A stretch of DNA of 33,766 nucleotides from Bacilli bacterium (lineage in GTDB: Bacteria > Bacillota_I > Bacilli_A > RFN20 > CAG-826), in NCBI GenBank assembly GCA_045111495.1, contig JBGUGI010000067.1:1-33766 (forward strand). The letters are read 5' to 3'. A program made the translations under genes and the position numbers. Positions 16,505 through 33,360 of this stretch are shown piece by piece. The notes below the pieces were generated by a model, which worked only from the letters and a program-made list of their open reading frames with translations, was not told where the DNA came from and searched no databases. Position 1 is the stretch's first letter. Each line of letters starts with the position of its first letter.

Positions 16505-16533
16505 AAAAACGTTCCCAAATTAGGAACGTTTTT
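16505..16533. terminator. Bidirectional terminator between the sRNA/lysR and the convergent aminotransferase
   Basis: AAAAACGTTCC-caaatta-GGAACGTTTTT, 11-bp perfect inverted repeat. Confidence 0.85.
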
Positions 16534-17858: not shown

Positions 17859-19055
17859 CTATTTGGTGATTAATTTTCCCTTGCCTCCACCTGTGCCACC
17901 TTCACCAGGAGTAGGTTCATCAAGCTTATAGAAACTTGGTTTGTATTTTTTATATGCAACATCAGTTAAATAGCTAAAAGCATAAGCGTCACCACCATAA
18001 GCATTTAAACCACCTTTTCCACCATTACCACCTTTTATACCAATTGAAGATGAATATGTTGTTAACACTTTAACGTTTTTATTGAAAGGTAGTTGACCAT
18101 GACCACCACGTGTATACTTAATACCTTCACCACCATTACCACCTATCGCTTTAATATAAGCTGAATCAGAGGTAGCGCAATTAATTATCTTGTTAGCGGA
18201 AATAGCGTATCCAGCAACAGCATCTTCATATTTACTATTGAAAGAAGAACTACTACCACCAGTAATTGTTAATGATCCATTACCATCATAGAAACAAACG
18301 TTTGGTAGGTTTATAGCGTTGCTAGCTGAATATGTATATGATGTTGAATCTCCACCAGTAATAGAGTTATATCCTTCAAACCTGAAGACGAATGTAACAT
18401 CCTTATTTGTGCCACCATAGTCAATTGCTGGCAAAGTAGAAGAAGATGACTTAAACTCAGTATTATTTAAACTTATTCTAACCACATCGCCACTTGGTCT
18501 TTCATCAAATTTAAATGCCAACAAAATGGTGCCTGAGCCAGCAAAGTGACCTAATTCAAGATGAGTAACACTAGCAGGAATATTAACAACGCCCGATCTG
18601 GAATAGTTTGAAACATTATTATAATTAAGTGAAAGTGTTTCTGAAGAAGAAGCGGTAAAAGTTGGTGCTTTTGTTGGTAAGGTAATGATCTTTGATTTAC
18701 AAACTGTTGTTTTTTCGTGCTTTTCATTGTACTTATATCCAACGATTTGAATCCTCTTACCAAGTAAAGATGAGTCATATGTAAATCCACAATTAGTAAA
18801 CGTCTGGAGAACCGTTGGTTCTGACTTTTTAGAACTCGATGAGGTAGAAGATTCATCAGGATGGACATATACGTCATATGAGGTACACTCCTCATTTCTT
18901 TCCCAAACAATCTTGTCTAAAATTTGATTTACTTCAAGGCTGTTTGAGATTGAGAAATTAAAGTTAATACCTGTGAATTCATTAAATGGATTATAGGAAC
19001 ATGCTGATAGACTAATAGCGGCAAGCGCTAAGAACACTAATGATTTTTTTCTCAT
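17859..19055 (-). CDS. Lipoprotein with Ser-rich linker and Gly-rich (GGxGG) C-terminal repeats; function unknown
   Basis: Signal peptide MRKKSLVFLALAAISLSAC with lipobox LSAC; GGNGGEG, GGNGGKGG, GEGGTGGGKG repeats. ATGA overlap with the upstream TIR gene. Confidence 0.75.
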   Translation of the reverse strand: MRKKSLVFLALAAISLSACSYNPFNEFTGINFNFSISNSLEVNQILDKIVWERNEECTSYDVYVHPDESSTSSSSKKSEPTVLQTFTNCGFTYDSSLLGKRIQIVGYKYNEKHEKTTVCKSKIITLPTKAPTFTASSSETLSLNYNNVSNYSRSGVVNIPASVTHLELGHFAGSGTILLAFKFDERPSGDVVRISLNNTEFKSSSSTLPAIDYGGTNKDVTFVFRFEGYNSITGGDSTSYTYSASNAINLPNVCFYDGNGSLTITGGSSSSFNSKYEDAVAGYAISANKIINCATSDSAYIKAIGGNGGEGIKYTRGGHGQLPFNKNVKVLTTYSSSIGIKGGNGGKGGLNAYGGDAYAFSYLTDVAYKKYKPSFYKLDEPTPGEGGTGGGKGKLITK

Positions 19056-22000
19056 AATCCACTCCCCCTAAATAGTCTTAATACAAGAGGTGTTACAGCA
19101 GTTAAAACAGCTGGGAATGCTGGCATAAATCCATTCATGAATTCTTGAACCTTAGCAGTGATTTCAAAGCCAAACATTCTTCCAGTATCAAAGTAAGTAA
19201 TAGCGAGGTTGTAACCACCCATTGCTGCAGCATAGATTGTCATAATTGATAGTAAGTAATAGAAATAGACATTCGAACAATCACAATCTGATGAACTTGG
19301 TTTAGTCTTTCTAACAATTGTTACGATTAAGTTAGCAACCGCTAAAAGTGTTGCCCATATTAAACCAGGAAGCATTTTATCATATGTTGGATTCCTTGTA
19401 CTTATGGTACCACCCAAGATCTCAAGAGTGCTTTGTTGAGTATGAAGAATCACGTTAATCACAATAAATGGAACAACAGACAAAATGCCAAACACAATAA
19501 GAAGTGGCTTATATGGATTCTTACCTGTTGTTAGATGACCATATCCAAATCTCGCCATTAAAGCGGCAACAATGGATACTCCTAGTAACACTACGTATGC
19601 TGATTCAGGTTTTAATAAGATAACCGCTGCAAGAGCAATAACTAATAACAAGATATTAAAGAACACCTGTACTCTTTCTTTAGCAAAAGAATAACTGCTC
19701 ACATTAGGAGTGGAAGACTTTGTCTTTGGAGCTTTTTTGGCTTCTTGAATCAAGGTGCCATTACCAATGGAAATAATGATTTCTTCCACAGGTGTGTCAT
19801 ATGGATTATCCATCTTCATTAATCTATTGTGTTTATTTCTAAAGGCTTTATATAAGTTTCTCTTTTCTTTGCCTTTACCATTTTTAATATTTTCAATAGC
19901 TTCATAGAATGCTAAATAATGATTAACTTGGTTAGGATGCTTTTCTTCATGAACGGCGACAAGCATTCTATAAGAAGATAAATCATTAAGTGATTTTCTA
20001 TAGAATAAGATGCTGTAGTTAGATGGTTTCTTGATATCACATTTAACTAAGCCCCATCTCGCGTCACAGTTAGCCTCATCAATATTTAAGACTTCTTCAT
20101 AGTAACGTCTTGCTTCTTTAAATCTCTTTTCGAGTAATAAGCGGTTACCGATTCGCATTAATAAGGCAATGGTATTTTCATCACTAGTGGAACCACTTCC
20201 TGTTAAAGAGGCCATCAAATTGAATATCTGTCTTGTGATGACTTTATTCTTTTTCTTATTAGTCATGATACAAGCGGCTCTTAAGATGATATTGAAATAG
20301 TTATTGCTTCTACTTGGAGAGATAAAATCCATCTTATAGCCACTTTCAATGGCTTTAATCATGAAGTAATAAAGATTAGCTTCTTTTAACTTATCATCGA
20401 TATTCTTTTTATTAATATTGAATTCCGCATAGTTTTTCTTTTTTAGTTTTTTAGCTAAGCTCCATTCACTAGCCCCTAAATCATCTAAATCAAAGCAGAA
20501 ACGATACCATAAGCAATCAACATCTAACTTATTGATTTCTAATGCTAAGTTGATGAATTCATCAACGAGGGCCTTATTATCCTTGCTTTTACTACTAGAT
20601 AAAGTCATGAATGATTTACGGTATAAATCAAAGATTTGTCTAGCGCCTTTTTCTTCGTAGTTAGAATAGATTCTTCTAAATAACTTATTAGCGATATTTA
20701 AGATAACATCATTTTTGATTTTAGTGTTTTGTACTTTGTTATTAACTAAATCAAAATAAGGCTTTTCAAAGTCTTTCGCGTATTCGAATAATTCATTCTT
20801 ATCTTCATACGTTTTAGCGATAGTTAAGAAAGTAGATTCTTCTTTCTTTAATTCACTAGCAAATCTAGTGGGATTATCACTGAATGATTTCTTCAGCATC
20901 TGCACCATGGCTTTTCTCACCCTCGCGCAGTCTTCTCCCCCCGCTTCCATAAGGGCTAAGAAGTCATTATTCATGCGTTGGATATCATCCACTCGCCATA
21001 ATGATGTATTAACTAAACTATCATCATTAGGAATCTTAAAGTTACATTTTAATTTGGCTAAGTTAGCTTCAAAGTTAAACTTATTAGTTTCTGTTAAACG
21101 ACATAGCTTCTTATACGCGGCTTTGTATTTGTTGTTGTTATTAATCTTCATATCCGCGACTGCGAGGTTGAAGTCTGTTCTTTCTAAGTTGTTTAATTCT
21201 TTTTCTTTAAAGCCTGTAAACTTCCTAGCAACGATTTCTTCCTTTTTGACGGATAAAGTACCAACCTTGTTGGTTTGAACTTTAATATCGTTAAATTTGC
21301 TCTTCTTCTCTTTTGAGATTAAAGAGCTAATGAGGCTATAGACATTACTATCAAATTCATCATCTAATTTAATGCCTTCAATGCCTTCTAGTTCTCTAGG
21401 AAGTTTATCTGGAGTGAAGCCATTATCAAAGACTGGGAGTAAACGTAATTTAACGTCCACTTCGTTTTCCATTCTCTTTTTAAATCTGGCCCATTCGTTT
21501 TTAACCCAAGGGGCTAATAAGTATTCTTTATGATCTGGAGTAGCACACACTAAGACGAATAACTTAGCACTTAATAAAGCACTACAAATGACTGGTTCAA
21601 AAGCTTTACCAGCATATCTGTGGTAAAGTGTATCTTCTGCGTAGAAGACATTTAATCCCCAATCATTAAATTTACGATATAACTTATCAGCGGTTTTACT
21701 ATCCCAAGTTAAACCACTGTCACCAGTTGTTCTTTTATAACAAATAAAGACATCGAAAGGTTCGATTTCTTTCATTGTTTTAATCGACTCTTCACGAAGC
21801 TTTTCAATCTCTTCTAAACGTTCTTTATAGTTTTTAAGTGTGGCTGGTAACTCGCTTAATATAGATTCTAGTTTATGGTAATACTCTTTAGAGAATATTG
21901 ATTCCTTTTGGACACTAGAAATAACTGGTTTCTCGGTAATGTTACTATCTTCACTAACATAAGAGACACCATAATCCGAAAGGAGTAATTGGAAATATAT

Positions 22001-22243
22001 TTCCGCGACATCTGGGTAAGTAGAAACAAGATCTTCTAAGATGATAGTTGCTTCATTGAAGTCGAACTTATTTCTCTTGATAATTGCGTCATTAATTTGA
22101 CTTTGTAATTGGTCATTAAGACCGGTTTTTGATTCCTTTAAAGGGAATATTTTATGACAATACTGACATTTTACAAATTCTTCATTCTGATCAACTAGTC
22201 TTTCACCACCACAGTGCGGACATTTGATTAGAATATCTGGCAT
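19052..22243 (-). CDS. Zinc-finger + TIR domain + TPR-like helical + multi-pass membrane protein
   Basis: Likely start is MPDILIKCPHCGG at 22243 (TAATG overlap with the protease stop). CPHC..CQYC zinc finger; TIR motifs FDVFICYKR, LNVFYAE, PWVKNEW (catalytic Glu position); TPR-like FKEARRYYEEVLNIDEANCDARWGL; about six hydrophobic segments at the C-terminus. Confidence 0.82.
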   Translation of the reverse strand: MPDILIKCPHCGGERLVDQNEEFVKCQYCHKIFPLKESKTGLNDQLQSQINDAIIKRNKFDFNEATIILEDLVSTYPDVAEIYFQLLLSDYGVSYVSEDSNITEKPVISSVQKESIFSKEYYHKLESILSELPATLKNYKERLEEIEKLREESIKTMKEIEPFDVFICYKRTTGDSGLTWDSKTADKLYRKFNDWGLNVFYAEDTLYHRYAGKAFEPVICSALLSAKLFVLVCATPDHKEYLLAPWVKNEWARFKKRMENEVDVKLRLLPVFDNGFTPDKLPRELEGIEGIKLDDEFDSNVYSLISSLISKEKKSKFNDIKVQTNKVGTLSVKKEEIVARKFTGFKEKELNNLERTDFNLAVADMKINNNNKYKAAYKKLCRLTETNKFNFEANLAKLKCNFKIPNDDSLVNTSLWRVDDIQRMNNDFLALMEAGGEDCARVRKAMVQMLKKSFSDNPTRFASELKKEESTFLTIAKTYEDKNELFEYAKDFEKPYFDLVNNKVQNTKIKNDVILNIANKLFRRIYSNYEEKGARQIFDLYRKSFMTLSSSKSKDNKALVDEFINLALEINKLDVDCLWYRFCFDLDDLGASEWSLAKKLKKKNYAEFNINKKNIDDKLKEANLYYFMIKAIESGYKMDFISPSRSNNYFNIILRAACIMTNKKKNKVITRQIFNLMASLTGSGSTSDENTIALLMRIGNRLLLEKRFKEARRYYEEVLNIDEANCDARWGLVKCDIKKPSNYSILFYRKSLNDLSSYRMLVAVHEEKHPNQVNHYLAFYEAIENIKNGKGKEKRNLYKAFRNKHNRLMKMDNPYDTPVEEIIISIGNGTLIQEAKKAPKTKSSTPNVSSYSFAKERVQVFFNILLLVIALAAVILLKPESAYVVLLGVSIVAALMARFGYGHLTTGKNPYKPLLIVFGILSVVPFIVINVILHTQQSTLEILGGTISTRNPTYDKMLPGLIWATLLAVANLIVTIVRKTKPSSSDCDCSNVYFYYLLSIMTIYAAAMGGYNLAITYFDTGRMFGFEITAKVQEFMNGFMPAFPAVLTAVTPLVLRLFRGSGL

Positions 22244-22971
22244 TAGAATTCGTACCCCCATCCTCTTAAAATATCTAAGATGTGATTGACTGGAATGAAG
22301 AAATTCATGCCTTTTGCATACATCATTCCTGAGACACACATGGCAATAAGTTCGCCTTTAGTGTTAAATAATGGGCCACCAGAGTTACCTTTGTTTGTCG
22401 AAACATCACTTGTTAATAAATAAGATTCTCCAACTCTTTTGTTTGTATCAGAAACAATACCACGAGAAACACTTATACCCATGCCTAAAGAATTGCCGAT
22501 AGCAATAACTTCATCACCATTTCTTAGTTTTGAAGAATCACCAAACTTAAGATGATTGTATGGAAGAGGATCATCAATCTTCACTAACGCAACGTCTTCA
22601 GAATCATAGCCTCTTCTTGGAACATTACCTTTAACGACTTTTCCGAGGTATTTTTGTCCTTCGAGAATAACTTGTACATATTCAAAGAAGACTTTATTAT
22701 CTTCGTCGTACACCATATGTCCATTGGTTAAGATATATCCATCACGGGAAATTAAGCATCCTGAACCGGTACCGCTCTCATTATTTATGATGGCAACAGC
22801 CTCGACGTTTTTATCGTAGACATTAGATACACTCTTTTGTGGAGCCGGCATTTGATAGTCGGAACTACCATAACCACTATTAGGTGTCGATTGAACTTCT
22901 ATCGGTGAAAAGCAGTAAGGACATTTGCTCTTACCATCTGGCACATTCGCGCCACACTTAGGGCAGCGCAT
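22243..22971 (-). CDS. Zinc-ribbon + trypsin-like (HtrA-type, no PDZ) serine protease
   Basis: CPKC...CPYC at the N-terminus; GSGCLI, ILTNGH (His), DVALVKI (Asp), NKGNSGGPL (Ser). No signal peptide. Confidence 0.9.
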   Translation of the reverse strand: MRCPKCGANVPDGKSKCPYCFSPIEVQSTPNSGYGSSDYQMPAPQKSVSNVYDKNVEAVAIINNESGTGSGCLISRDGYILTNGHMVYDEDNKVFFEYVQVILEGQKYLGKVVKGNVPRRGYDSEDVALVKIDDPLPYNHLKFGDSSKLRNGDEVIAIGNSLGMGISVSRGIVSDTNKRVGESYLLTSDVSTNKGNSGGPLFNTKGELIAMCVSGMMYAKGMNFFIPVNHILDILRGWGYEF

Positions 22972-22974
22972 AAA

Positions 22975-24147
22975 CTAGAGCTCCTTACCACAGTGTGGAC
23001 AGTATTTGCCTTTACTCTTGATAGTTTTGCCACAGTGTGGGCATTTTCTTTCCATTGGCGCTAAAGCTTCACCGCATTGTGGACAGAATGGTTCGCCTGT
23101 AACGACTTCTGCACCACACTTTGGACAGAATCTCTTAGCAACGTCTTTAGCTGCTTCTGCAGCGGCTTTCTTAGCTTCTTGAGCGTACATTGGATCATGT
23201 GGATAGCCTAAGAGTTTGATAACTTCTAAATACTTGGATTCGTCTTCTCTTCTTAAAGCGATAAGGAATTTTGTTCTTTCCCATTCTTTATCATCAAGTC
23301 TTTCAAGTTCGGCTGCGATTTCTTTAGCATCCGCTTTGAATTTCTTTTCATCTCTATTAGCTTTAAGAGTGGCTTCAATTTCAGCGCGTTGAGCGTCATC
23401 AATGAATAATTGTTCAATTGAGAAGATTGGGCTATATAAACCATATTGTTCATTTAACATTTCAGACACTAGTGGTTGGATAGCTTCCGCTACTTCACCT
23501 TCGTGTAATGGTAAATCAATATATCCTAAGTGATGTTCATGAATAACTTTGGTTAATTCATTCTTAAGAATATGAACGACATGGTCATTAATTCTTTCTA
23601 ATAAGTCTTCCATCTTAAAGTCACGGTTACTACCGACGACTCTTTCGAAGAATTTCTTCACATCTGCGATTCTGATGTCATATTTACCACGACCTCTGAT
23701 ATCCACTGGAATATCTGTTTCTGGATCTCTATAAGGGATTGGGTTTGGGATACCCCAGAAGCCTTCATAGGAAAGGTTTTGGTTAAAGACGACAACATCA
23801 AACATGATATTATCTTTAACTTGTTTCTTTGGTTTCCCAAATAAGCATTTCTTCTTGTATTCGAAGTCATCTTCTCCGAAGGCTGGATATGAACCATTCG
23901 CTAAAGGTTCACTAGCAACACCATCTCTAATAATCATCATTTCGCATCCAGGAGCGGCTAAGATGAGTTTAGTTTCAGGATTCTTAAACGCACCATAGGC
24001 GCGATAGAATAAATTCTTGTTGTCTGTTTCTAATCTGATCTTGTCAACATTAGTTGGTAAATCAACGATCTTGCCATCCTCGTGATTTCCAGACACCACA
24101 AAAGTGCTCATTGGCACATTGTCAGTTTTTGCTTTCTTTTTGCACAT
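22975..24147 (-). CDS. SPFH (band 7 / YdjI-like) domain protein with C-terminal double zinc ribbons
   Basis: WGIPNPIPYRDPETDIPVDIRGRGKYDIRIAD..KFF resembles the YdjI-like SPFH signature; coiled-coil region; four CPxCG motifs at the C-terminus. Confidence 0.8.
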   Translation of the reverse strand: MCKKKAKTDNVPMSTFVVSGNHEDGKIVDLPTNVDKIRLETDNKNLFYRAYGAFKNPETKLILAAPGCEMMIIRDGVASEPLANGSYPAFGEDDFEYKKKCLFGKPKKQVKDNIMFDVVVFNQNLSYEGFWGIPNPIPYRDPETDIPVDIRGRGKYDIRIADVKKFFERVVGSNRDFKMEDLLERINDHVVHILKNELTKVIHEHHLGYIDLPLHEGEVAEAIQPLVSEMLNEQYGLYSPIFSIEQLFIDDAQRAEIEATLKANRDEKKFKADAKEIAAELERLDDKEWERTKFLIALRREDESKYLEVIKLLGYPHDPMYAQEAKKAAAEAAKDVAKRFCPKCGAEVVTGEPFCPQCGEALAPMERKCPHCGKTIKSKGKYCPHCGKEL

Positions 24148-24180
24148 ATAAAAGTTTCTCCATTATGTAACATAGTCCCC

Positions 24181-24218
24181 ATGACTTATGTACGTTATTT
24201 GATTTAATAATAAGTCAT
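24181..24218. promoter_or_regulatory. Inverted repeat upstream of the SPFH operon (possible operator)
   Basis: ATGACTTAT-N20-ATAAGTCAT. Confidence 0.35.
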
Positions 24219-24310
24219 ATATGTATACGTACGCAATAGGATTGTAAATATGGGCAAAAATGATTAAAAATGGGATGAAATATTCAACTTTTTATCAAAT
24301 GATTATTCTA

Positions 24311-25492
24311 CTAAAATAGGAATCTCAAGTAATCTAGAATGCCTGTTCTGCAAAAACGACAGGCGCCACTCCTCGCTGCTGGGCAAGCCGATGATGCGCT
24401 GTTGTTCAAAGAAAAACAATATTTGATGCCAGGGTGTCCATATACCCATTTATCATAGATTCTATAGTTACGCCCCTTTTTCAATTGTGAATTAGGAATT
24501 AAATAGATAGTATTATCATGGCAAGGCAGGCTAGGATAGTAATATGGTTCAGTGCCGTGATGAGGAACTTTGATTAAGTCAAAATTTCTAATTTTGCCAC
24601 CGTGATTTCTTTTATGTTTTATCATCGCACGATCCAATGCGTAATCGTCAGCATCGCCACACATTAATAGTTTTGATTCTATTTCGAAGACTATCGAAAG
24701 TCTGTTTTCCATATCGCTTATAGCTTTAGAAAGGCTATCTGAAATAGACATTTTCTTTAGATATGCGGCAACCTCATCGAGCGATGGGATGGTTTCGTCT
24801 TTATACGATTCTTGAACTTCATCAATATCGAAACTAGTAATGACTCCATCTTTTGCTTTTTTCAAAAGAATAGAAAAGTAATTATGAATTTTTAAGAGAC
24901 ATTTAACTACTGGATTCGTTTTGTCATAGCAAATACATTGGAACAGTTGGTTTCCAATATTTTGAACTTCTTTTTTTAATTTTTCATCTTCATCAAGTGG
25001 ACCAGGCCACAAAACATTTGCGACCGTTTTCCCAATATTTATTTTATTTCTGACAGTGTTGTTAACCCCATAAACGGTACTGCCGCTGGCAAGAAGGCTT
25101 CTGAATGTTTTAAATGACAACCAGATTCGAAAGCTTTCGTGGTCACCAGTGATTGCTGCATACATCGCTAGACTAGCGTACGCTGTTGAAAAATCAAATG
25201 TTAGTCCGCAAAGGCTGAGATCTCTTACATATACATTCTTAAAGGTAACGCCATATAAAAACAATTCGTAAAGCGTGTTAAAATGATCGGCATGGTAATG
25301 GGTGACCAAAAGATTCTTTACATCAAATTTATTGAGCTCTTTGCTAATTAATTTTGACATAAATGCCTTCCTAGTAGATCCTTGATTTAACGAGCCGCAG
25401 TCAATTAGCAAATTATTAGTTTCATCTTCGATTAAAAACGAATCGCCAAAACACATATTAAAAAAAGTAATAGTTCTATTCATCTGACTCAT
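24311..25492 (-). CDS. ComEC/Rec2-type metallo-beta-lactamase-fold hydrolase (putative nuclease effector)
   Basis: FGDSFLI, LLIDCGS, THYHADH (HxHxDH), NRLSIV, LMCGDA, IKVPHHGT. No TM segments or signal peptide. The ATG overlaps the RT stop (TAATG). Confidence 0.85.
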   Translation of the reverse strand: MSQMNRTITFFNMCFGDSFLIEDETNNLLIDCGSLNQGSTRKAFMSKLISKELNKFDVKNLLVTHYHADHFNTLYELFLYGVTFKNVYVRDLSLCGLTFDFSTAYASLAMYAAITGDHESFRIWLSFKTFRSLLASGSTVYGVNNTVRNKINIGKTVANVLWPGPLDEDEKLKKEVQNIGNQLFQCICYDKTNPVVKCLLKIHNYFSILLKKAKDGVITSFDIDEVQESYKDETIPSLDEVAAYLKKMSISDSLSKAISDMENRLSIVFEIESKLLMCGDADDYALDRAMIKHKRNHGGKIRNFDLIKVPHHGTEPYYYPSLPCHDNTIYLIPNSQLKKGRNYRIYDKWVYGHPGIKYCFSLNNSASSACPAARSGACRFCRTGILDYLRFLF

Positions 25493-27189
25493 TAAAAGCG
25501 CTCCTCATCTTCGCTTGGTTGTTGACTATCATATAAATCAAAAATGATTCTTGGTGTGTCGTCTAAATAACCATCATAATTCTCTTTATCGACAGAATAA
25601 ATGGACATCAATAAAGGTGAAAAACAAGTAAGGAATAATTTCCCACTTGATAAATTGGTTTGGGTTTTTGCTATATTAAACAGATTCTTATTCATCCCAT
25701 TTCCTTTTTTAATGAACGACATAAGGACGAAAGGACTTTTTTTCTTTACTTGTTTATTGTATAAATCAAAAGCCTCCTCTTTTTGAAAATCAATCCCGTA
25801 TTTGCTAATTATGTAATAATGCCACACTTGAATGATTGAAGAGTTGTAGGAGGAATTAATTAATTCTGTTTTGGAAAGCATATCATCAACAATTTCGAGT
25901 TGTATTGGTGTGCCTTCATTTCTTGACATAATGGCATCTATTATTTTGAAACATCTACTTCCTAGATACTTTTCTGTAAGCGCCAGTTTGTAAAAATAAT
26001 TAATTGAATAACTTGGGTTTTCAATTTCGCAATCATTACTCTCCATAAAGCCTTTTATCTTAGACAATATGGCTTTTGAGAGGCTCTTTTTATTTCCTAT
26101 AACTGCTTTAGCAATTGTGGCTTTAAGAGCTTCTAAAGCATCAAGGCTTCCACCATTCTCACAATAATTCTTTGCGCTTATTTCAATTTCGTCTTTCAAG
26201 TCTTCTTCATACTCTAAGGCACACTTTTCAATTAACGTCTTATTTTCATTAATAGAAAGCTCATACTCGAAAAGCAACATTTGCAGCTTATCCAAAAGTG
26301 TTGATAGTTCTTCCTTTGAATCACTATAAAAGGTCATGTCATCGACATTGCGCAGATAGCCAATCGATTTGTCTTTGATTAAGTCTTTTTCGATTCTCTT
26401 ATCAATTTCATTCATAAACAATTCTGCGCAAAGCGTTGAAGAAAACGGTCCAGGGAAGATTCCTTTTGTTTGGCTTAGATTTGTTCTTTGACTGAATTTG
26501 TCCAAAAATGAGAAATACACATTCTCCAAAGATGTAGGGGGCAGTTCAAAAGTGTTGTATCTCTTTCCGATTCTTTCTAAATGATGCGTATAAATGTTTG
26601 AGTAGAAATTAGAAATATCGACTTTCAAAGAATATAAGTAATTTTTTTCTTCTTTTTTAGTCCTTTCTTTCTTATGCTCAAAGCCGAATATATTAACCAA
26701 GAAGTCAAAATCTTCGTCTTCATATTCTTGATAAAAATCTTCGATAATGTAAAAGCCGTTATCAACAAAAATAGGAGAAAGACTGCATGAGTAGTAAGTT
26801 GATTCCAAGTATATATTTGTGAAAAAACTGTCTTTTAAAGAGACGGTGTTGTAAACAAATCCAAGATATAAAAGTGGATTAACCATACCCATCTGCCGCA
26901 GCGAGTTGTTGTTTTTATACGAATAAAACTTGGCTATTTCTGTTCCGTATGGTGCGCCATTACGAATCTTGAAATCTTTTATCCCAGAAACAAAGGTTTC
27001 ATCTGAATTATGAAAAGTAAATAAATCATATCTTTCTTTGTTGCTAATGTTATTTAAAACATTGAAGTATCCAGCATTTGATGGATGATTAAAAATAGGC
27101 GGAAGATCTTTGTCCCACAATCCTTCAATAAGGGTTTTACACTTGCTCAAAAAATCATAATTTAACATATTCCAATACTCCAATGACAT
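25492..27189 (-). CDS. Abi/UG-class (AbiK/AbiA-like) reverse transcriptase with helical C-terminal extension
   Basis: K....R.M...NP..Y; motif A VDISNFYSNIYTH; motif B GIFPGPFSSTLCAELF; motif C YLRNVDD; LSINENKT; then ~240 aa of predicted helical tail. Lacks retron NAxxH/VTG motifs and the group II intron YADD/maturase domain. Confidence 0.85.
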   Translation of the reverse strand: MSLEYWNMLNYDFLSKCKTLIEGLWDKDLPPIFNHPSNAGYFNVLNNISNKERYDLFTFHNSDETFVSGIKDFKIRNGAPYGTEIAKFYSYKNNNSLRQMGMVNPLLYLGFVYNTVSLKDSFFTNIYLESTYYSCSLSPIFVDNGFYIIEDFYQEYEDEDFDFLVNIFGFEHKKERTKKEEKNYLYSLKVDISNFYSNIYTHHLERIGKRYNTFELPPTSLENVYFSFLDKFSQRTNLSQTKGIFPGPFSSTLCAELFMNEIDKRIEKDLIKDKSIGYLRNVDDMTFYSDSKEELSTLLDKLQMLLFEYELSINENKTLIEKCALEYEEDLKDEIEISAKNYCENGGSLDALEALKATIAKAVIGNKKSLSKAILSKIKGFMESNDCEIENPSYSINYFYKLALTEKYLGSRCFKIIDAIMSRNEGTPIQLEIVDDMLSKTELINSSYNSSIIQVWHYYIISKYGIDFQKEEAFDLYNKQVKKKSPFVLMSFIKKGNGMNKNLFNIAKTQTNLSSGKLFLTCFSPLLMSIYSVDKENYDGYLDDTPRIIFDLYDSQQPSEDEERF

Positions 27190-27254
27190 ATCGGGAACTA
27201 AAAAGCACCTTTGCCTTTTAGTATACTAACAATCTCTCATAAAACATATATTTT

Positions 27255-27473
27255 TTGATAGAATCAGGATTTATTATCAACAAAAAAACAGCGCTTGGCT
27301 GTTTTTTGATTCGCCCAATAAGGCGGTAACATCGTTGGAAATAAGTGGCGGATCACTTATTCCATTTCACTTGCTGTTCTGACACGGCACGAAATGGTAT
27401 GATCCAGTGCAAAAACCCCATAGTAGATCTTTACGAATGATTTTCACAAGCAATGCAATGCTCCGGAGAGCAA
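27255..27473 (-). ncRNA. Putative structured ncRNA / regulatory RNA between the dGTPase-like gene and the RT (strand uncertain)
   Basis: At least six stems in ~220 nt, including competing helices and a cUCCGg tetraloop on the minus strand. Confidence 0.45.
27281..27308. terminator. Bidirectional terminator-like hairpin upstream of the RT
   Basis: AAAAAACAGC-gcttg-GCTGTTTTTT. Confidence 0.75.
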
Positions 27474-29087
27474 TTACACTTTATTATAATCTTTCATTGT
27501 TGTCAAACATGTCTTGAGAACAAATAATCTATTTTTGAAAAAGTCAGACAGTTTCTCATCAATTGTATACTTCCCAAGAGTGATGTGCGCAGAGCAGCAT
27601 TTATCGACATGATTGTTAATTTCCAAGTCCCTGTGGTCTCTATCAAATGATTTGAAAAAAGTACTGACAGCAAAATTATCAGTCATCTTGCCAATACTAA
27701 AGCTAATCTCACGCATTAGCGACATCGCCATGGAATCCATGACGGTGTCATATCCAAATTTAGTGAAATAGTACTTACCTAATTCTTTGCATATTTGTTC
27801 CAAATCGGTTAAGTTTCTTTTTCTATAGTCTTCTTTATCCTCGTTATACTTGCAAGTTTTAAGATTCTCGATCAATGTATATAGTGTTTCATTGTACTTT
27901 TTAATATTACATACATAATCGAAATACTTGGTGGCATTATTATCACCTTTCTTGTATTTTGAATCATCCCTTATTTGAATGAAATTGTTAATAATATATT
28001 CAAAACTTTTGTGATCATTTCCAAAAAGCGCATCTGGATCACCCAAATAATAATCGAAAATCTTAAATATTATTAGGTATGATAAACTATTCTGTTTCTC
28101 AACTATTTCATTTCCATGGAGTCTTTTCTTACGCAAAGTTTCTAAATACTCAAACACCTCTTTCATTTCGTCGTCAAAATCCACGACTTTTTCATCAAAA
28201 TAAACAACCTTACTATCGAGTTCTTTTTTAGTTAAATATTTTTGTATATTTTGTCTAGTTTGAAGAATTAAAGATTTGACCATTTTGTCCCTTATCTCAA
28301 GCAAAAATTCCTTTAAAGTTTGTTTTTCGTTTTTAAAAAGGACCTTTAACTCGTTATCGGTGAACAAATGCTCCATAACAAGATTTGAATCCTCTAAATC
28401 GCTTAGCATCTGTGCAACTTCATCTGCCATAGCCACGACTTGTCCTTCTAATGTATAACAAGCCGTATTATCGAGATAACCTTTTGTTTTTCTCAAAGTC
28501 TCTGGCAAAAAACTATGTGCACCAAATACTCTTTTTTTCTCACCATTGTACTCAACACCATCGAATTTATTTATCTTGGTATGTTTCAAAACACCATCAA
28601 TTATATCTGGTGAACAAATACTGAAATTCCGTTTCAATAATGCCGCTGAGTAAAAGTTATGTTTGAAAACCAATTCTCCGTGTTTATCTCCGTCAGGAAA
28701 GAATGTTCTAAAAGCTTTGTTTTTACCATTCATGTAGTGAGTTAATGCTTGCTCGCCAATATGACCAAAAGGTGTATGGCCAAAATCATGGGCAAAAGCT
28801 ATGGCATCTAACAGATCTTCTGAGTATTTGATATTTTCTGTAACATCAGCCCAACCCTTCATAGTAAAAATGTATTCTTCTTTGCATATTTTTTTCATTA
28901 TTTCTTTTGCGGCGGAGCACACTTCTAAAGTATGAAGAAGTCTTTCGTGAATGTAATCTGCCTTTGAATCTGTTTGCGCAACAAGCAAAGAGAAAACTTG
29001 CTTTTTCCCTTTTAATCTTCTCATTTGTTTAGAAGCGAGGATTCTATTTAAAGTAATCGAATACGTTGTGTCATTGAACGTTCTCAT
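27474..29087 (-). CDS. Divergent dGTPase-family (dNTP triphosphohydrolase) HD-domain protein
   Basis: RILASKQMRRLKGKKQVF (cf. RRL..KTQVF), RLLHTLEV (cf. RLTHSLEV), AHDFGHTPFGHIGE, TLEGQVVAMADEVA..DLED, C-terminal IGKMTDNFA (cf. GMTD). Confidence 0.87.
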   Translation of the reverse strand: MRTFNDTTYSITLNRILASKQMRRLKGKKQVFSLLVAQTDSKADYIHERLLHTLEVCSAAKEIMKKICKEEYIFTMKGWADVTENIKYSEDLLDAIAFAHDFGHTPFGHIGEQALTHYMNGKNKAFRTFFPDGDKHGELVFKHNFYSAALLKRNFSICSPDIIDGVLKHTKINKFDGVEYNGEKKRVFGAHSFLPETLRKTKGYLDNTACYTLEGQVVAMADEVAQMLSDLEDSNLVMEHLFTDNELKVLFKNEKQTLKEFLLEIRDKMVKSLILQTRQNIQKYLTKKELDSKVVYFDEKVVDFDDEMKEVFEYLETLRKKRLHGNEIVEKQNSLSYLIIFKIFDYYLGDPDALFGNDHKSFEYIINNFIQIRDDSKYKKGDNNATKYFDYVCNIKKYNETLYTLIENLKTCKYNEDKEDYRKRNLTDLEQICKELGKYYFTKFGYDTVMDSMAMSLMREISFSIGKMTDNFAVSTFFKSFDRDHRDLEINNHVDKCCSAHITLGKYTIDEKLSDFFKNRLFVLKTCLTTMKDYNKV

Positions 29088-29201
29088 ATAATCACCCTAC
29101 CCACACTATGTTTAATATATACAACAATAGAATGATAGCATGTTTATAAAAAATAGTTGATTGTTTCTTACTTTTTGTTTGATAATCGCTTTTTTGCAAA
29201 T

Positions 29202-29227
29202 AAAAAGTCACCCGCAAAAGGTGACTT
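29202..29227 (-). terminator. Terminator after the Lrp-aminotransferase operon
   Basis: Minus strand AAGTCACC-ttttgcg-GGTGACTT-TTT. Confidence 0.8.
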
Positions 29228-29253
29228 ATGAATTTGATTTATAAGATTGTATT

Positions 29254-30411
29254 TTAAGCAATAGCTTTAAGAAATCTCTCTATTCTTTTAATTGCTTCCT
29301 TTAAAGCGTCTAACGAATAAGCATAAGAGATTCTTACAAATCCTTCGTCACTGTCCCCGAAAGCGGTACCAGGTACCACGACAACATGTTCTTTATTTAA
29401 TAACTCAGTAGCGAACTCTTCACTATTCATTTTGTATTTTCTTATATCAGGGAAGATATAGAATGCTCCTTTAGGTTCAAAGCACGGTAAGCCTAATCTA
29501 TTGAATTCTTTAAGAAGGTATTTTCTTCTTTTATCATATTCCTTCTTCATTCTTTCGATATCGCTATCACCATTTCTTAAAGCTTCTAATCCAGCATATT
29601 GGCTTATTGTAGGCGCACTCATGACCACGAATTGATGGATCTTTTTAACTTGATCAATAATTACTCTAGGGCCCATAACATAGCCTAATCTCCATCCTGT
29701 CATGGAATAGGCTTTGGAAAAGCCGTTGATGGTAATAGTTCTTTCTTTCATATTTGGTAAAGAACCAATAGAACAATGATTACCTTCATAAGTTAATTCA
29801 CTATATATTTCATCACTGATGACTAATAAATCATGTTTAATAATGACTTTAGCGATCTTCTCTAAATCAGCTTTATTCATAATAGCCCCAGTTGGGTTAT
29901 TAGGATAATTCATTAAAAGAATCTTTGTTTTAGAAGTGATAACACTTTCTAGTTCTTCTGGAGTTAATCTAAACTCATTTTCGTTTTTAAGTTTAATCTT
30001 AATAGGCACACCACCAGCGAGAATAATATCTGGCTCGTAGCAGACGTAATTTGGTTCAAGGATAATTACCTCATCCCCTGGGTTAATCGTTGCTCTTAGG
30101 GCGATATCAATGGCTTCTGAGCCACCACAGGTGATAATGACTTCATCCTTACTATAATCAAGATTATATTTACGCTTATTCCATTTAGCGATTTCTTCTC
30201 TTAATTCTGGTAAGCCTTGATTAGAAGTATAGAATGTTCTTCCTTGTTCTAAGGAATAGATACCTTCTTCTGTAATATGCCAAGGCGTATCAAAATCAGG
30301 TTCCCCAACACCTAAAGATATACAATCTTCAATGCTATTAGCGATGTCAAAGAACTTTCTGATACCAGAAGGTTTAATGTTCTTTATTTTGTTTGATACG
30401 AAATCTCTCAT
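29254..30411 (-). CDS. Class I/II aminotransferase (YugH/AlaT-like)
   Basis: IKPSGIRKFFD, ISLGVGEPDFDTPW, NYPNNPTG, SDEIYSEL, NGFSKAYSMTGWRLGY; ATGA-coupled to the Lrp gene as in yugG-yugH-type pairs. Confidence 0.9.
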   Translation of the reverse strand: MRDFVSNKIKNIKPSGIRKFFDIANSIEDCISLGVGEPDFDTPWHITEEGIYSLEQGRTFYTSNQGLPELREEIAKWNKRKYNLDYSKDEVIITCGGSEAIDIALRATINPGDEVIILEPNYVCYEPDIILAGGVPIKIKLKNENEFRLTPEELESVITSKTKILLMNYPNNPTGAIMNKADLEKIAKVIIKHDLLVISDEIYSELTYEGNHCSIGSLPNMKERTITINGFSKAYSMTGWRLGYVMGPRVIIDQVKKIHQFVVMSAPTISQYAGLEALRNGDSDIERMKKEYDKRRKYLLKEFNRLGLPCFEPKGAFYIFPDIRKYKMNSEEFATELLNKEHVVVVPGTAFGDSDEGFVRISYAYSLDALKEAIKRIERFLKAIA

Positions 30412-30890
30412 AAAACAATATTAGTTCTTTTATCTATTTTCTTATCTTCTAATAAAACACCATGGTCTTTATATTTCTTTAAGACAAAGTGAGTAGCGGT
30501 ACTTTGAACATAATCAATTGTCGCTAGTTTATTAAAGACAAAGGAGGATACTTCTTTCATGGATTTACCGTTAATAATAACCATAAAGTCATAACCGCCA
30601 GAAATAAGATAGATACTATCTACTTCATCAAATCTAGATATACGGTCAGCGATTCTATCAAAACCAGTACCTCTTTGAGGTGTGACTTTCACTTCGATTA
30701 AAGCATTACACTTTTCTTCAGTAATCTTATCCCAGTTAATAATGGCAGAATATCCACATATCACTTTATCCGCTTCTAGTTCGCCCACTAATTGGAGAGC
30801 TTCTTTTTCTTTGATGTCTAGTTCTTCTGCAATTTCTTTAATAGAAAGCTTTGCGTTCTTTTCTAATAACTCTAAGATTTTGGTTTTCAT
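30408..30890 (-). CDS. Lrp/AsnC-family transcriptional regulator (YugG-like)
   Basis: N-terminal HTH; ALIEVKVTPQRGTGFDRIA, SGGYD, STATHFVLKKYK. Confidence 0.92.
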   Translation of the reverse strand: MKTKILELLEKNAKLSIKEIAEELDIKEKEALQLVGELEADKVICGYSAIINWDKITEEKCNALIEVKVTPQRGTGFDRIADRISRFDEVDSIYLISGGYDFMVIINGKSMKEVSSFVFNKLATIDYVQSTATHFVLKKYKDHGVLLEDKKIDKRTNIVL

Positions 30891-30892
30891 AA

Positions 30893-30978
30893 AAACACCT
30901 CAACGATATGTTTAATTAATTGCTATTTATTGTATTTAAAGTATAACAAAATAACAAGAAACTATCGTTGAGGTATTT
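30893..30978 (-). promoter_or_regulatory. Long inverted repeat bracketing the Lrp promoter and covering its RBS
   Basis: ACCTCAACGATA (30897-30908) / TATCGTTGAGGT (30963-30974); extended -10 TG-t-TATACT on the minus strand at 30948-30940 lies between the arms. Confidence 0.6.
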
Positions 30979-30998
30979 AACTATTTATAAAACAGTTA

Positions 30999-33143
30999 TT
31001 ACTTTGGCGCTATAACTTCAAATTCAGAAATAGTAAAGGTTATTCTACCTTCATAAATAACAGCGTCGACTGCGAAAAACACTGTTTGATCTTGGACAAC
31101 GATATTATCGTTTGCTCCACCGACTAAGTACTTACCATATTCGGCAATATTAAGAACATCACTATAACCATAGCCGCCTCTAGTGCCCCAGTCATTATTA
31201 ACAACAAATTTGAATGCTTGCTTTGGTTGAAGATACACACTACTTAAACGGAATAAATCATCACCCATTTTTGTAAACATCAAACCACCACTTGTGACAT
31301 CCCAGTCATTGAAATCACCGACCATGGAAATGGAATTAATATTATCATCTTCCTGTTGTTGTGGTTTAGCTTCGTGGAAAGCACGAATAATAACAGTGCC
31401 TAAACTAGCATCGCTATCATCATAGTTAATCCAGAGATAGTTATCACCTGCTTCTTTGCGGTAATAAGCACCTTTAAATGTACCTAGATATCCACCATCA
31501 AGAACAAAGCCGTTACCGTTTAACTTATTTTTATAATTTTGTGATTCACTATATCTAGTATTTTTAATTTCTAAGGCATATGGTTCTTTACTTAATTCTT
31601 GTGTACCATATTCAATTCTTTCCCCATCATATTCAGGAACACCGATGTCCGCTAAGACTTTAGGGAATGTTGGTTTAACATATGTATCTGGTAAATCGCC
31701 TGAATAGATGAAATCCATTACACCACCTATACCTTGTTCGTCCATAAAGGCAATGATGAGGTTTCTATTTGTGAATTTATATCTCTCCATAATGTCGGAT
31801 AAACTATCGACTAAACTAACTTCCTTAGCTTCATTGTTATCTTGTTGTCTAACATAGAATCTTAAAGCCACTAAATCAGTAATTTCTGAAACTAAAGCAC
31901 CATTTTGATCAATATAGTATAGATGGATAACTAGTTTCTCACCATTCTCATCAACAAAACCATTGAATAGTTCTCGTATAGTGACATTACCAGGAACTTG
32001 ATAGTTACCAGCACCTCCGGATAAGCTACCATTCATTGCTCTAATAGCCACAATCTCTTGTTTTTGTTCTTCTTGTTCGTCTCTACAAACTAGATTATAG
32101 ATAATGTCTTCTTTTGCGATTTTAGAGAAATCGTTATAGCAAGTTTTAAGAACACTATTTTGTGTACCTGCTTTATTAAAGAAGCTATCAGCATCTATTT
32201 CATTAGTGTTTAATCCTAAGTTAGTAAACAAAGCATTAGCGATTGTCTTAGCAGCTTCACTTTTTTGTCTGACATTCTTGTTCTTATAATAAGTACCATT
32301 CTTATACCAAGAACAGGCATCTACTTTATATTCACATCCTTCATTAACATAAGCATCAAAGTCTTGATGACTAGCGTCTTTCACTAAACGATGATCATTA
32401 TCCATACAGAACTTTCTCCATTCATTAATTTCGGAGTTCTTAACTTCTACATAATCATATTCATATGTATATCTCTTGTAATATGGTAGTTCTCTTTCAT
32501 CAGTCTCTGTCACCATACTCATTGTATAGTTAGGAGAGTTATTAGCCATATCATAGTCTAGTTCTATTCCTACATACCATTTCGTGGTATATGACTCACT
32601 ACCTTTTTTAAGATTAATATCAAATGATACATCCGCAGTGATGAGATTATCATCATCGATATTAATATCCATACCTAAAGTGAAGGTGTAGTTATATTTA
32701 AATTCATCACCTTTTTCTTTTTTAGCTCCTGTATTGATATCGACATACATTTCACCAGTAACAGTGTCATAGTATTTCTTATCAAACTCATACCCGTTGC
32801 CAATCTTTTCTAATACTTTCTTAATGTATTGGAATTGAATCATTGGGGGTTCATTGTATGAAACATCATCTAAGAAATCATCTCTTTTATCTTCTTCTGT
32901 ATATAGATTAAAGATAGTATCTAATGCAGAAGATGGATTAGATCCCCCTATCTTATTTCTTTTTAACAATAATGGTTTATTTCTTTTAACGACTTTAGGA
33001 GACTTAAATGATTTCTCCACACCATTAAAGGCAAACTTAACTTTCTCATATTGTGTAGTAGGTAACTTATTAGCATTACAACCAATTAAACCTATAGCAA
33101 AAGACCCTACCAGCGTAGCAACAAAACAATTAATCTTTTTCAT
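30999..33143 (-). CDS. Large lipoprotein with C-terminal carbohydrate-binding-like (SusE/SusF/CBM-type) module
   Basis: Lipobox LIGC; C-terminal SMVGDFNDWD...AFKFVVNNDWG pattern typical of starch-binding Ig-like modules; rest unrecognised. Confidence 0.6.
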   Translation of the reverse strand: MKKINCFVATLVGSFAIGLIGCNANKLPTTQYEKVKFAFNGVEKSFKSPKVVKRNKPLLLKRNKIGGSNPSSALDTIFNLYTEEDKRDDFLDDVSYNEPPMIQFQYIKKVLEKIGNGYEFDKKYYDTVTGEMYVDINTGAKKEKGDEFKYNYTFTLGMDINIDDDNLITADVSFDINLKKGSESYTTKWYVGIELDYDMANNSPNYTMSMVTETDERELPYYKRYTYEYDYVEVKNSEINEWRKFCMDNDHRLVKDASHQDFDAYVNEGCEYKVDACSWYKNGTYYKNKNVRQKSEAAKTIANALFTNLGLNTNEIDADSFFNKAGTQNSVLKTCYNDFSKIAKEDIIYNLVCRDEQEEQKQEIVAIRAMNGSLSGGAGNYQVPGNVTIRELFNGFVDENGEKLVIHLYYIDQNGALVSEITDLVALRFYVRQQDNNEAKEVSLVDSLSDIMERYKFTNRNLIIAFMDEQGIGGVMDFIYSGDLPDTYVKPTFPKVLADIGVPEYDGERIEYGTQELSKEPYALEIKNTRYSESQNYKNKLNGNGFVLDGGYLGTFKGAYYRKEAGDNYLWINYDDSDASLGTVIIRAFHEAKPQQQEDDNINSISMVGDFNDWDVTSGGLMFTKMGDDLFRLSSVYLQPKQAFKFVVNNDWGTRGGYGYSDVLNIAEYGKYLVGGANDNIVVQDQTVFFAVDAVIYEGRITFTISEFEVIAPK

Positions 33144-33360
33144 AATGTGTATTTAAAACAACTCCCTGGAACCAATATCTAATATTTGATTCAAATTATA
33201 CGTATATGATGGTTATAGCCTTATCATAACACGTATTTAGAAAATATACATTAATAAAGAAAAAGCCATCGGATTGGAGTGCTAGTATAAAAGTGGACAA
33301 GGGTAAAAAGCCCCCATCCACTTTTTTCTTTTTGCTATTCTATTTGAAGGAGGTTATTAA

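Follow-up and report, generated by a model that had tools for sequence, protein, structure and literature searches.

A divergent UG31-type reverse transcriptase with an apparently coupled MBL-fold gene in a strain-specific, defence-like cargo of a ruminant-gut Bacilli genome

The UG31 group of reverse transcriptases (RTs) is among the groups predicted to be defensive by Mestre et al. 2022 (PMC9226505) and belongs to Class 1 of the UG/Abi RTs, which the same work defines by a C-terminal alpha-helical repeat (alphaRep) domain; the available part of its text gives no partner gene for UG31. The Class 1 relatives with solved structures carry out a protein-primed, untemplated synthesis of single-stranded DNA (ssDNA) (PMC12783706, PMC9508834). 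The defence-associated RT (DRT) DRT4 is described as a single-gene system, and both DRT4 (UG15) and DRT6 (UG12) are described as acting without a partner gene (PMC12783706). The reported triggers of DRT4 are an SSB-like phage protein and raised levels of deoxynucleoside triphosphates (dNTPs) (bioRxiv 10.64898/2026.10.27.754916). Here, we analysed a stretch of 33,766 nucleotides (the window) from a Bacilli bacterium (GenBank assembly GCA_045111495.1, contig JBGUGI010000067.1, the contig 67 of a 1.21-Mb genome that is 86% complete), in which a UG31-type RT gene is followed by a gene for a protein of the metallo-β-lactamase (MBL) fold and preceded by a dGTPase-like gene.

Defence proteins of the MBL fold have been described as pro-nucleases that are cut twice, after Ile on either side of a gate, by a sensor-fused partner protease (PMC12799240; bioRxiv 10.1101/2025.11.14.688446), and such trypsin-like protease-activated effectors serve Avs, Hachiman, Lamassu and some DRT systems (PMC12799240; bioRxiv 10.1101/2025.11.14.688446). 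A UG9 variant combines an MBL protein with a protease-RT fusion (PMC9226505). In the literature searched, no RT and MBL system lacking a protease was found, in keeping with the original prediction for this stretch, which had not recognised the combination among known systems. The RT-MBL pairing is unusual and, among the loci that could be retrieved, was seen only in the window. What is new here, and seen once, is an MBL gene coupled to a UG31 RT, the UG31 group, the anti-phage kind of MBL and the dGTPase family being known.

The best PADLOC profile for the window RT was RT_UG31 (E 4.1e-73, 245 bits), followed by Drt6 (130 bits) and Drt4 (116 bits); Pfam RVT_1 matched at E 1.3e-15 and no protease domain was present. 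Close relatives of the RT were limited to ten other clusters (29-67% identity) among 5.8 billion proteins. An alignment of the window RT with these ten clusters and 20 RTs from named genomes or metagenomes, mostly from Lachnospiraceae and other Clostridia, comprised 31 sequences, and all 31 matched RT_UG31, some of them down to E 4e-123. The named-genome and metagenome RTs share 23-33% identity with the window RT. By these sequence comparisons, the window RT is a divergent branch of UG31 and so of the Class 1 UG/Abi RTs. The RT does not lie outside the named types, given its PADLOC assignment to a group already named. The true start of the RT is probably M8 (ATG at 27168), giving a protein of 558 aa, because GGAG lies 9 nt upstream (27181-27178), the N-termini of the homologs point the same way and the gene call in the database is 558 aa long.

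The catalytic aspartates of the RT are intact, D191 in motif A and V282-D283-D284 in motif C being invariant across the 31 sequences. In the AlphaFold2 (AF2) model (predicted local distance difference test, pLDDT, 87.2), an N-terminal region and a palm-and-fingers core are followed by an all-helical tail (332-554), which is modelled at high pLDDT. Over its whole length the model matched DRT4 (9vdo, template modelling score, TM, 0.67/0.75), DRT6 (9wy8, 0.64/0.72) and AbiK and Abi-P2 (0.47-0.56) in Foldseek, and the alignments to DRT4, DRT6 and AbiK, of 570-597 columns, include the C-terminal helical domain. The same set of DRT4, DRT6, AbiK and Abi-P2 was recovered by a sequence profile search started from the RT (E 1.6e-26 to 1e-18). 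The model and the Foldseek matches thus give the RT the alphaRep domain of Class 1, and the expected Abi/UG-class RT with a helical tail is borne out. The RT is a relative and not a member of the DRT4 family, as it scored 86.7 bits against NF041749, the cut-off of which is 450. The priming Tyr125 of DRT4 aligns with Phe170 of the window RT, so that a priming site, if there is one, would lie elsewhere; Y127 and Y200 are invariant in the 31-sequence alignment. AbiK primes from a site that differs from that of DRT4.

The three genes are co-oriented on the minus strand, and their open reading frame (ORF) coordinates were confirmed as exact (Table 1). The RT stop codon TAA (25494-25492) and the ATG of the MBL gene (25492-25490) share one base, and a GAGGAG ribosome site lies inside the RT gene, 8 nt before the MBL ATG. 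This arrangement supports a translational coupling of the RT and MBL genes, as the TAATG overlap had been taken to imply. A predicted RT-MBL complex scored 0.01 (mark 0.32), which counts neither for nor against binding.

The MBL protein matched Pfam Lactamase_B (E 5e-10) and carries HxHxDH at H65-H70. The MBL fold of the predicted 'ComEC-type MBL hydrolase' was upheld, but its ComEC label is loose, no ComEC NCBIfam family matching at E <=0.01. The best named matches were anti-phage MBLs: in PADLOC, LmuA (PDLC03854, Lamassu-type, 6.5e-16), RTasMBL (2.3e-13) and Avs1a (1.2e-8), and in NCBIfam, Avs1a (NF041809) with 47.5 bits against a cut-off of 420; a 6A-MBL enzyme family gave 29 against 220. 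Among 19 relatives, H65, H67, H70, D280, H311, H312, C359 and C370 are invariant and D69 nearly so. In the AF2 model (pLDDT 90.1), a helical insert of about 100 residues (~170-264) separates the halves of the MBL domain, and the C-terminal tail contains Cys. Foldseek aligned the model over its full length with the Pce phosphodiesterase (TM 0.40-0.51) and in part with beta-CASP nucleases. The protein is probably an MBL-fold phosphodiesterase, judging from fold and residues, and probably a nuclease; its named matches and intact catalytic residues agree with the suggestion that it is of the nuclease effector kind.

A phylum-wide search with the MBL profile matched six of the 399 scored genomes (two further genomes were unscored), including that of the window itself; the other matches were to the N-terminal domain only (G534, G121), to a gene divided between two contigs (G715) or weak (G537, G076), and no full-length MBL gene with intact neighbours was found in the other genomes. 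Plasmid and phage collections gave no match to the MBL protein, viral contigs none to its profile, and the Protein Atlas gave generic 'MBL fold' clusters from Bacillota only. With the RT profile, viral contigs yielded matches only to distant Abi-P2-like RTs.

About half of the MBL relatives are longer, at ~560-600 aa (e.g. ~585; P0044-P0049, P0051, P0054, P0057, P0058). Their N-terminal domain of about 200 residues has no Pfam match and carries a conserved D...(I/V)E(M/V)KK, resembling a PD-(D/E)xK nuclease. This domain also occurs as a free protein of about 190 aa in L216 (G534) and L217 (G121). The MBL relatives P0041-P0043 share 39-52% identity with the window protein.

The borders of the inserted material were sharp. 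In G264, the closest congener that shares the flanks, blastn aligned 19777-24291 (82% identity) and 29267-33246 (91%) with nothing between, and a ~95%-identical strain (run X6) has a contig that diverges from the window exactly at 24292. The left border is spanned by a bovine-gut contig from a different study (X4 record 22, 23651-24450, 8 differences, 99% identity). The three genes are the entire strain-specific cargo of this site, which agrees with their description as inserted among unrelated genes. At the equivalent site, G264 has 5,660 bp with seven other ORFs (L213:9810-15469). Their products include HTH-Peptidase_M78 and DndB/GmrSD-N-like proteins, together with a protein of 200 aa that bears a deaminase-like CAE...PCxxC and one of 420 aa that bears RNAIVH (HEPN-like Rx4H), the last two motif assignments being readings by eye. 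As G264 holds different defence-like genes in the same place, this slot, flanked by the aminotransferase and SPFH genes, behaves like a hotspot for defence genes, and the cargo lies in a variable, defence-rich site. No convincing terminal or flanking repeats were found in the border scan, and no integrase among the window ORFs. Of the 401 genomes of the order, two had the RT, namely that of the window and one matched weakly (1e-11). The dGTPase-like gene was found in one of the 23 genomes of the genus, again the window's own, and in none of the other 22. The sequencing runs that contain the stretch are ruminant gut metagenomes. In run X4, two joints (19910>27018 and 24993>28888) were set aside, their sides of just 21 nt being too short.

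The divergent dGTPase-like gene that had been predicted upstream of the RT was confirmed as such: the protein matched Pfam HD at E 2.5e-5 and the PADLOC dGTPase profile at E 1.2e-32 (residues 7-360), at scores below the curated cut-offs. It reached 127.5 bits against TIGR01353 (cut-off 152.35, residues 13-396), 83.7 against 400 for NF041026 (anti-phage dGTPase) and 76.6 against 383 for NF003701. Solved dGTPases were matched only at residues 9-137, and an extra C-terminal part extends beyond the profile ends at ~360-396. The HD metal residues H52, H100, D101 and D222 are conserved in at least 90% of 51 homologs, and the gene has about 9 close relatives (37-70% identity), P0060-P0062 lying at 61-70%. 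Anti-phage dGTPases act through dNTP depletion. Because a terminator-like hairpin follows the gene, it is probably a transcription unit separate from the RT.

This hairpin lies in the spacer between the dGTPase-like and RT genes and consists of an A-run, a CAGC/GCUG stem extended by A-U pairs and a T run. The spacer had been described as hairpin-rich, and it does fold far better than its shuffles (minimum free energy, MFE, -81.5 kcal/mol vs -60.6 +/- 4.3; z = -4.84; 0/200 shuffles as good), part of the signal being supplied by the hairpin (27307-27282), which was absent from the list of the pattern scanner. The further proposal that a structured RNA here is a component of the RT was not sustained. 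The solved Class 1 relatives are protein-primed and untemplated according to PMC12783706 and PMC9508834. The RT groups with Class 1 and not with Class 2, and it does not fit the DRTs that depend on a conserved structured non-coding RNA beside the RT gene (DRT2, 3, 9, 10 type). In the UG31 relatives, 18-31 nt separate the upstream gene from the RT, leaving no room for an upstream RNA gene. Rfam gave no family for the spacer at E <=10, its sole match in 24000-29400 being a chance snoRNA outside it. The spacer has no second copy in the window's genome, chance matches of <=33 nt aside, and no homologous spacer was found for covariation. The 3′ end of the dGTPase-like gene holds a promoter-like site; if this were used, the whole spacer would be the 5′ leader of an RT-MBL operon, but the site is only a lead, as the scan gave 14 sites in the region vs 24.9 in shuffles. 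AACAGC, which occurs upstream and in the terminator stem, was considered as an anti-terminator and set aside as a 6-mer coincidence.

We tentatively favour, at somewhat less than even confidence, a composite defence cargo, in which an independent dNTPase stands beside an RT-MBL operon and a Class 1 RT able to act by itself has gained a nuclease effector at this locus. The block would have been horizontally acquired as a defence cargo of two transcription units. The first, the dGTPase-like enzyme with its own promoter region and terminator-like hairpin, would, if it acts as anti-phage dGTPases do, reduce the dNTP pools of infected cells. In the second, by homology to AbiK, Abi-P2, DRT4 and DRT6, the RT would oligomerise and make protein-primed, untemplated ssDNA that reports infection, and the coupled MBL would be a latent DNA-degrading effector of the kind found in Avs, Lamassu, Hachiman and some DRT systems. 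The RT clade would be able to work alone, the MBL having been picked up here as a local accessory effector, and the spacer would be the dGTPase terminator and RT leader, not an RT template. What the analysis shows is the gene content, the borders, the coupling, the family placement, the folds, the intact catalytic residues and the lack of the pairing at the other loci that could be retrieved; we infer each of the activities, as well as the signalling from RT to MBL and an anti-phage phenotype.

Several observations weigh against this composite reading. We examined the neighbours of the RT in 32 UG31 loci, which represent 18 lineages at 90% identity and 446 predicted genes and are those of 163 loci whose RT match exceeds 380 query residues, minus the window copies L081 and L082 (L004, L008 and L085 fall below this filter, and L085 was read separately). 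As a tally of downstream Pfam families showed 25 of 64 families and could not exclude an MBL, we ran a hidden Markov model (HMM) and a motif test. The HMM of the MBL family gave no match at E <=1 in the 446 genes, and no HxHxDH gene lay within 3 genes of the RT in the 32 loci. The original prediction had itself named homologs usually lacking the MBL neighbour as a reason to abandon it, and none of the retrievable UG31 loci (0/32, 18 lineages) keeps one, these counts excluding the closest RT relatives, P0002 (66%) and P0004-P0007 (42-49%). The closest RTs that could be retrieved (L084 and L085, 52-55% identity) have no partner gene, and no RT adjoins the distant MBL relative in G715, which covers most of the length over two contigs. 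Functionally unrelated genes overlap slightly as well in this dense 1.2-Mb genome, for instance by 4 nt in the case of the Lrp-type regulator and aminotransferase genes and in that of the TPR protein and lipoprotein-like genes. Defence MBLs of this kind need a sensor-fused protease, and the window RT has no protease domain. Finally, the literature searched held no UG31 experiments of any kind.

The surroundings of the UG31 RTs were varied. In L084 (7845-9542) and L085 (1370-2023), a UDP-glucose dehydrogenase gene ends 18 nt before the RT; an NAD-dependent epimerase gene follows 3 nt downstream in L084. This RT relative lies within a cluster for polysaccharide synthesis, which includes glycosyltransferases, a Wzy-like gene and LicD.

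Nearly as likely as the composite cargo is that the three genes are independent modules, namely a stand-alone UG31 RT, a self-contained MBL nuclease and a dGTPase-like dNTPase, the TAATG reflecting compaction or co-transcription. UG31 RTs stand alone or beside unrelated genes (integrase, RepA, GNAT acetyltransferase, oxidoreductase, sugar genes) in 16 of the 18 lineages, DRT4 and DRT6 are described as acting without one (PMC12783706), and MBL relatives exist without an RT, in G715 and in the long forms fused to a PD-(D/E)xK-like domain. The longest-contig sizes of the RT relatives (11262, 10221, 7278, 3047, 3532, 32314...) are also absent among the MBL and dGTPase relatives, but such size matching is weak, as the listing gives one contig, the longest, for each cluster. 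Against independence, no promoter-sized gap precedes the MBL gene, the ribosome site of which falls within the RT gene. Moreover, an unregulated nuclease would be toxic and would need a gate or sensor, and none is present within the MBL protein.

It is unlikely that UG31 RTs are nucleotide-pool sensors, that the RT or its ssDNA licenses the MBL without a protease and that the leader is a cis-regulator. Untemplated synthesis would then report a phage-driven rise in dNTPs, with a recruited hydrolase setting the threshold (NUDIX twice, HD dNTPase here), the RT, or the ssDNA attached to it covalently, would license the MBL pro-nuclease directly, and the structured leader and internal terminator would keep the RT-MBL operon off until infection. 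NUDIX genes adjoin UG31 RTs in two of the 18 lineages, at differing positions (L002:9148-9924, L090:9202-9924, L098:11803-12294 and related loci): in one, an HTH_26-NUDIX fusion lies 31 nt upstream, and in the other, a 163-aa NUDIX gene lies 116 nt downstream. In the accessible text of Mestre et al. 2022, NUDIX is mentioned only for UG23 (PMC9226505). The earlier proposal that the dNTP level governs the firing of the RT draws support from the DRT4 report (bioRxiv 10.64898/2026.10.27.754916) as far as the relative is concerned, and for the window locus it is still conjecture.

Also unlikely is the idea that the real partner of the MBL is the trypsin-like protease two genes downstream, with the RT as bystander or as second input. 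In this reading, the zinc-ribbon SPFH protein and the TIR-like/TPR/membrane protein would sense infection, upon which the protease would cleave the MBL. Similar-sized MBL pro-nucleases are trypsin-activated in Avs, Hachiman, Lamassu and DRT systems (PMC12799240; 10.1101/2025.11.14.688446), the window MBL and trypsin match neighbouring PADLOC LmuA models (PDLC03854 and PDLC03855), and the catalytic H, D and S of the protease are present (S197 in GNSGGP). In addition, the trypsin gene has diverged in G264 and is replaced in X6, and both genomes lack this MBL. However, the cargo border at 24292 separates the MBL from the SPFH gene, and G264 has the SPFH, trypsin and TPR genes with no MBL. Since the SPFH and TPR pair occurs elsewhere in the order without trypsin or MBL (L222, L225, L229), the cluster appears to be a unit separate from the cargo. 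A canonical MBL gene lies directly upstream of a sensor-fused protease (trypsin, caspase or subtilisin), whereas next to the window MBL lies the SPFH-zinc ribbon gene, and the protease is HtrA-like, of 242 aa and free-standing. No conserved Ile column was seen in the MBL family alignment, and no Ile cleavage sites emerged from the sequence.

The integrated four-part system that was originally proposed, in which the dNTPase sets a threshold, the spacer RNA serves the RT and the RT DNA controls the MBL, is equally improbable: all parts do lie in one 5-kb cargo with a well-folding spacer, DRT4 is reported to be activated by raised dNTPs (bioRxiv 10.64898/2026.10.27.754916) and NUDIX hydrolases adjoin a few UG31 RTs, but the terminator-like hairpin intervenes before the RT, the relatives have upstream gaps too short for an RNA gene, the solved Class 1 relatives need no RNA, the spacer has neither an Rfam match nor a homolog, and no dGTPase or HD gene adjoins the RT in the 18 UG31 lineages (one weak dGTPase HMM match lies 5 genes off, in L005).

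The neighbouring cluster downstream of the cargo (19052-24147, minus; loci L212, L222, L225, L229) encodes an SPFH/double-zinc-ribbon protein, a zinc-ribbon/HtrA-like trypsin and a 1095-aa protein, the last with a zinc ribbon, a TIR-like 'FDVFICYKR' (weak, SARM1/TIR-1 TIR at E 0.022), TPR and C-terminal membrane helices. Of the 401 genomes of the order, 21 have SPFH relatives, some of which are directly followed by a TPR-type gene with no trypsin between. The trypsin genes of the window and G264 (L212:2677-3411) are 59.6% identical, their neighbours 91% and 84%; both copies keep the catalytic H, D and S, and in the X6 strain the gene is replaced by 655 unlike letters. From its sequence, the trypsin gene looks like a hypervariable or exchanged cassette within a conserved cluster. 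Metatranscriptome contigs from a related strain (run X18) lie on the genes of this cluster and cover 17955-21330, 22927-24202 and 30113-30355 of the window, with none on 24517-29526; as they come from a 90-97% identical relative that may lack the cargo, and are contigs and not reads, they are uninformative on the expression of the RT, MBL and dGTPase-like genes. Elsewhere in the window, PurB and PurA are fused in a single frame (856-aa ORF, 6250-8820, minus) with Lyase_1, ADSL_C and a full adenylosuccinate synthetase domain.

Table 1. Features of the cargo and its surroundings, in window coordinates (assignments predicted from sequence)
Feature	Coordinates	Strand	Length	Basis or detail
Aminotransferase gene	29254-30411	minus		
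Strain-specific cargo block with MBL, RT, spacer and dGTPase-like gene	24292-29266		4,975 bp	blastn vs congener G264
Terminator-like hairpin 3′ of the aminotransferase gene, upstream of the dGTPase-like gene	29205-29227	minus		pattern scan: 9-pair stem, then TTTATTT
dGTPase-like HD dNTP triphosphohydrolase gene	27474-29087	minus	537 aa	
Promoter-like site, 3′ end of the dGTPase-like gene	27478-27506	minus		TTGACA-17 nt-TAAAGT; consensus scan 10/12
Hairpin-rich spacer, dGTPase-like gene to RT gene	27190-27473	minus	284 nt	
Terminator-like hairpin with T-run in the spacer	27282-27307	minus		sequence reading; hairpin in MFE fold
UG31-group RT gene	25492-27189	minus	565 aa as ORF	
RT-MBL junction	25490-25506	minus		GAGGAG 25506-25501, 8-nt gap, TAATG 25494-25490
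MBL-fold gene	24311-25492	minus	393 aa	
Gap, MBL gene to SPFH gene			163 nt	
SPFH/zinc-ribbon gene	22975-24147	minus		
Zinc-ribbon/trypsin gene	22243-22971	minus		
Zinc-ribbon/TPR/membrane protein gene	19052-22339	minus	1095 aa	
Lipoprotein-like gene	17859-19055	minus		
Aspartate aminotransferase gene	16532-17746	minus		

UG31 is a named group that lacks experimental work in the literature searched, and the window locus offers a compact natural test construct for it. If the RT controls the MBL, a latent MBL nuclease could be licensed without a protease, which would be a new gating mode for a widespread effector, and Class 1 RTs could pass a signal to a separate effector. The adjacent dNTPase is of interest since DRT4 is reported to respond to dNTPs. 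If the three genes are independent, the locus would amount to a defence hotspot of the usual sort, clearly bounded, in a reduced genome from the ruminant gut, and its value would lie mainly in a new divergent branch of each of the three families.

Compared with known systems, the dGTPase-like protein resembles the anti-phage dGTPases in its HD fold, metal residues, PADLOC match and position as an accessory gene in a defence slot, but it falls below all curated cut-offs and carries the extra C-terminal part. The window MBL is like the protease-gated MBLs Avs1a, HamM and VcMBL in size (393 aa vs models of 322-392 positions) and in its middle insert, and the catalytic D276 of VcMBL has a counterpart in D280. 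In contrast to these, the only protease nearby is the free HtrA-like protein outside the cargo, and the long forms of the window family carry a PD-(D/E)xK-like domain rather than a protease partner. With the UG9 variant the locus shares an MBL gene beside a defence RT, but the window MBL lies downstream of the RT and not upstream, and the RT has no fused trypsin domain. The whole-length fold and the catalytic aspartates are common to the window RT and DRT4, DRT6, AbiK and Abi-P2; however, DRT4 is a single-gene system with Tyr125, whereas the window RT has Phe170, a coupled downstream gene and a score far below the family cut-off. With UG31 itself the window RT shares the profile match, the RT motifs and the C-terminal helical repeats, and its place in a defence-rich variable slot agrees with the defensive role predicted for the group by Mestre et al. 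2022 (PMC9226505); it differs from the group in its divergence (23-33% identity) and in the coupled MBL gene.

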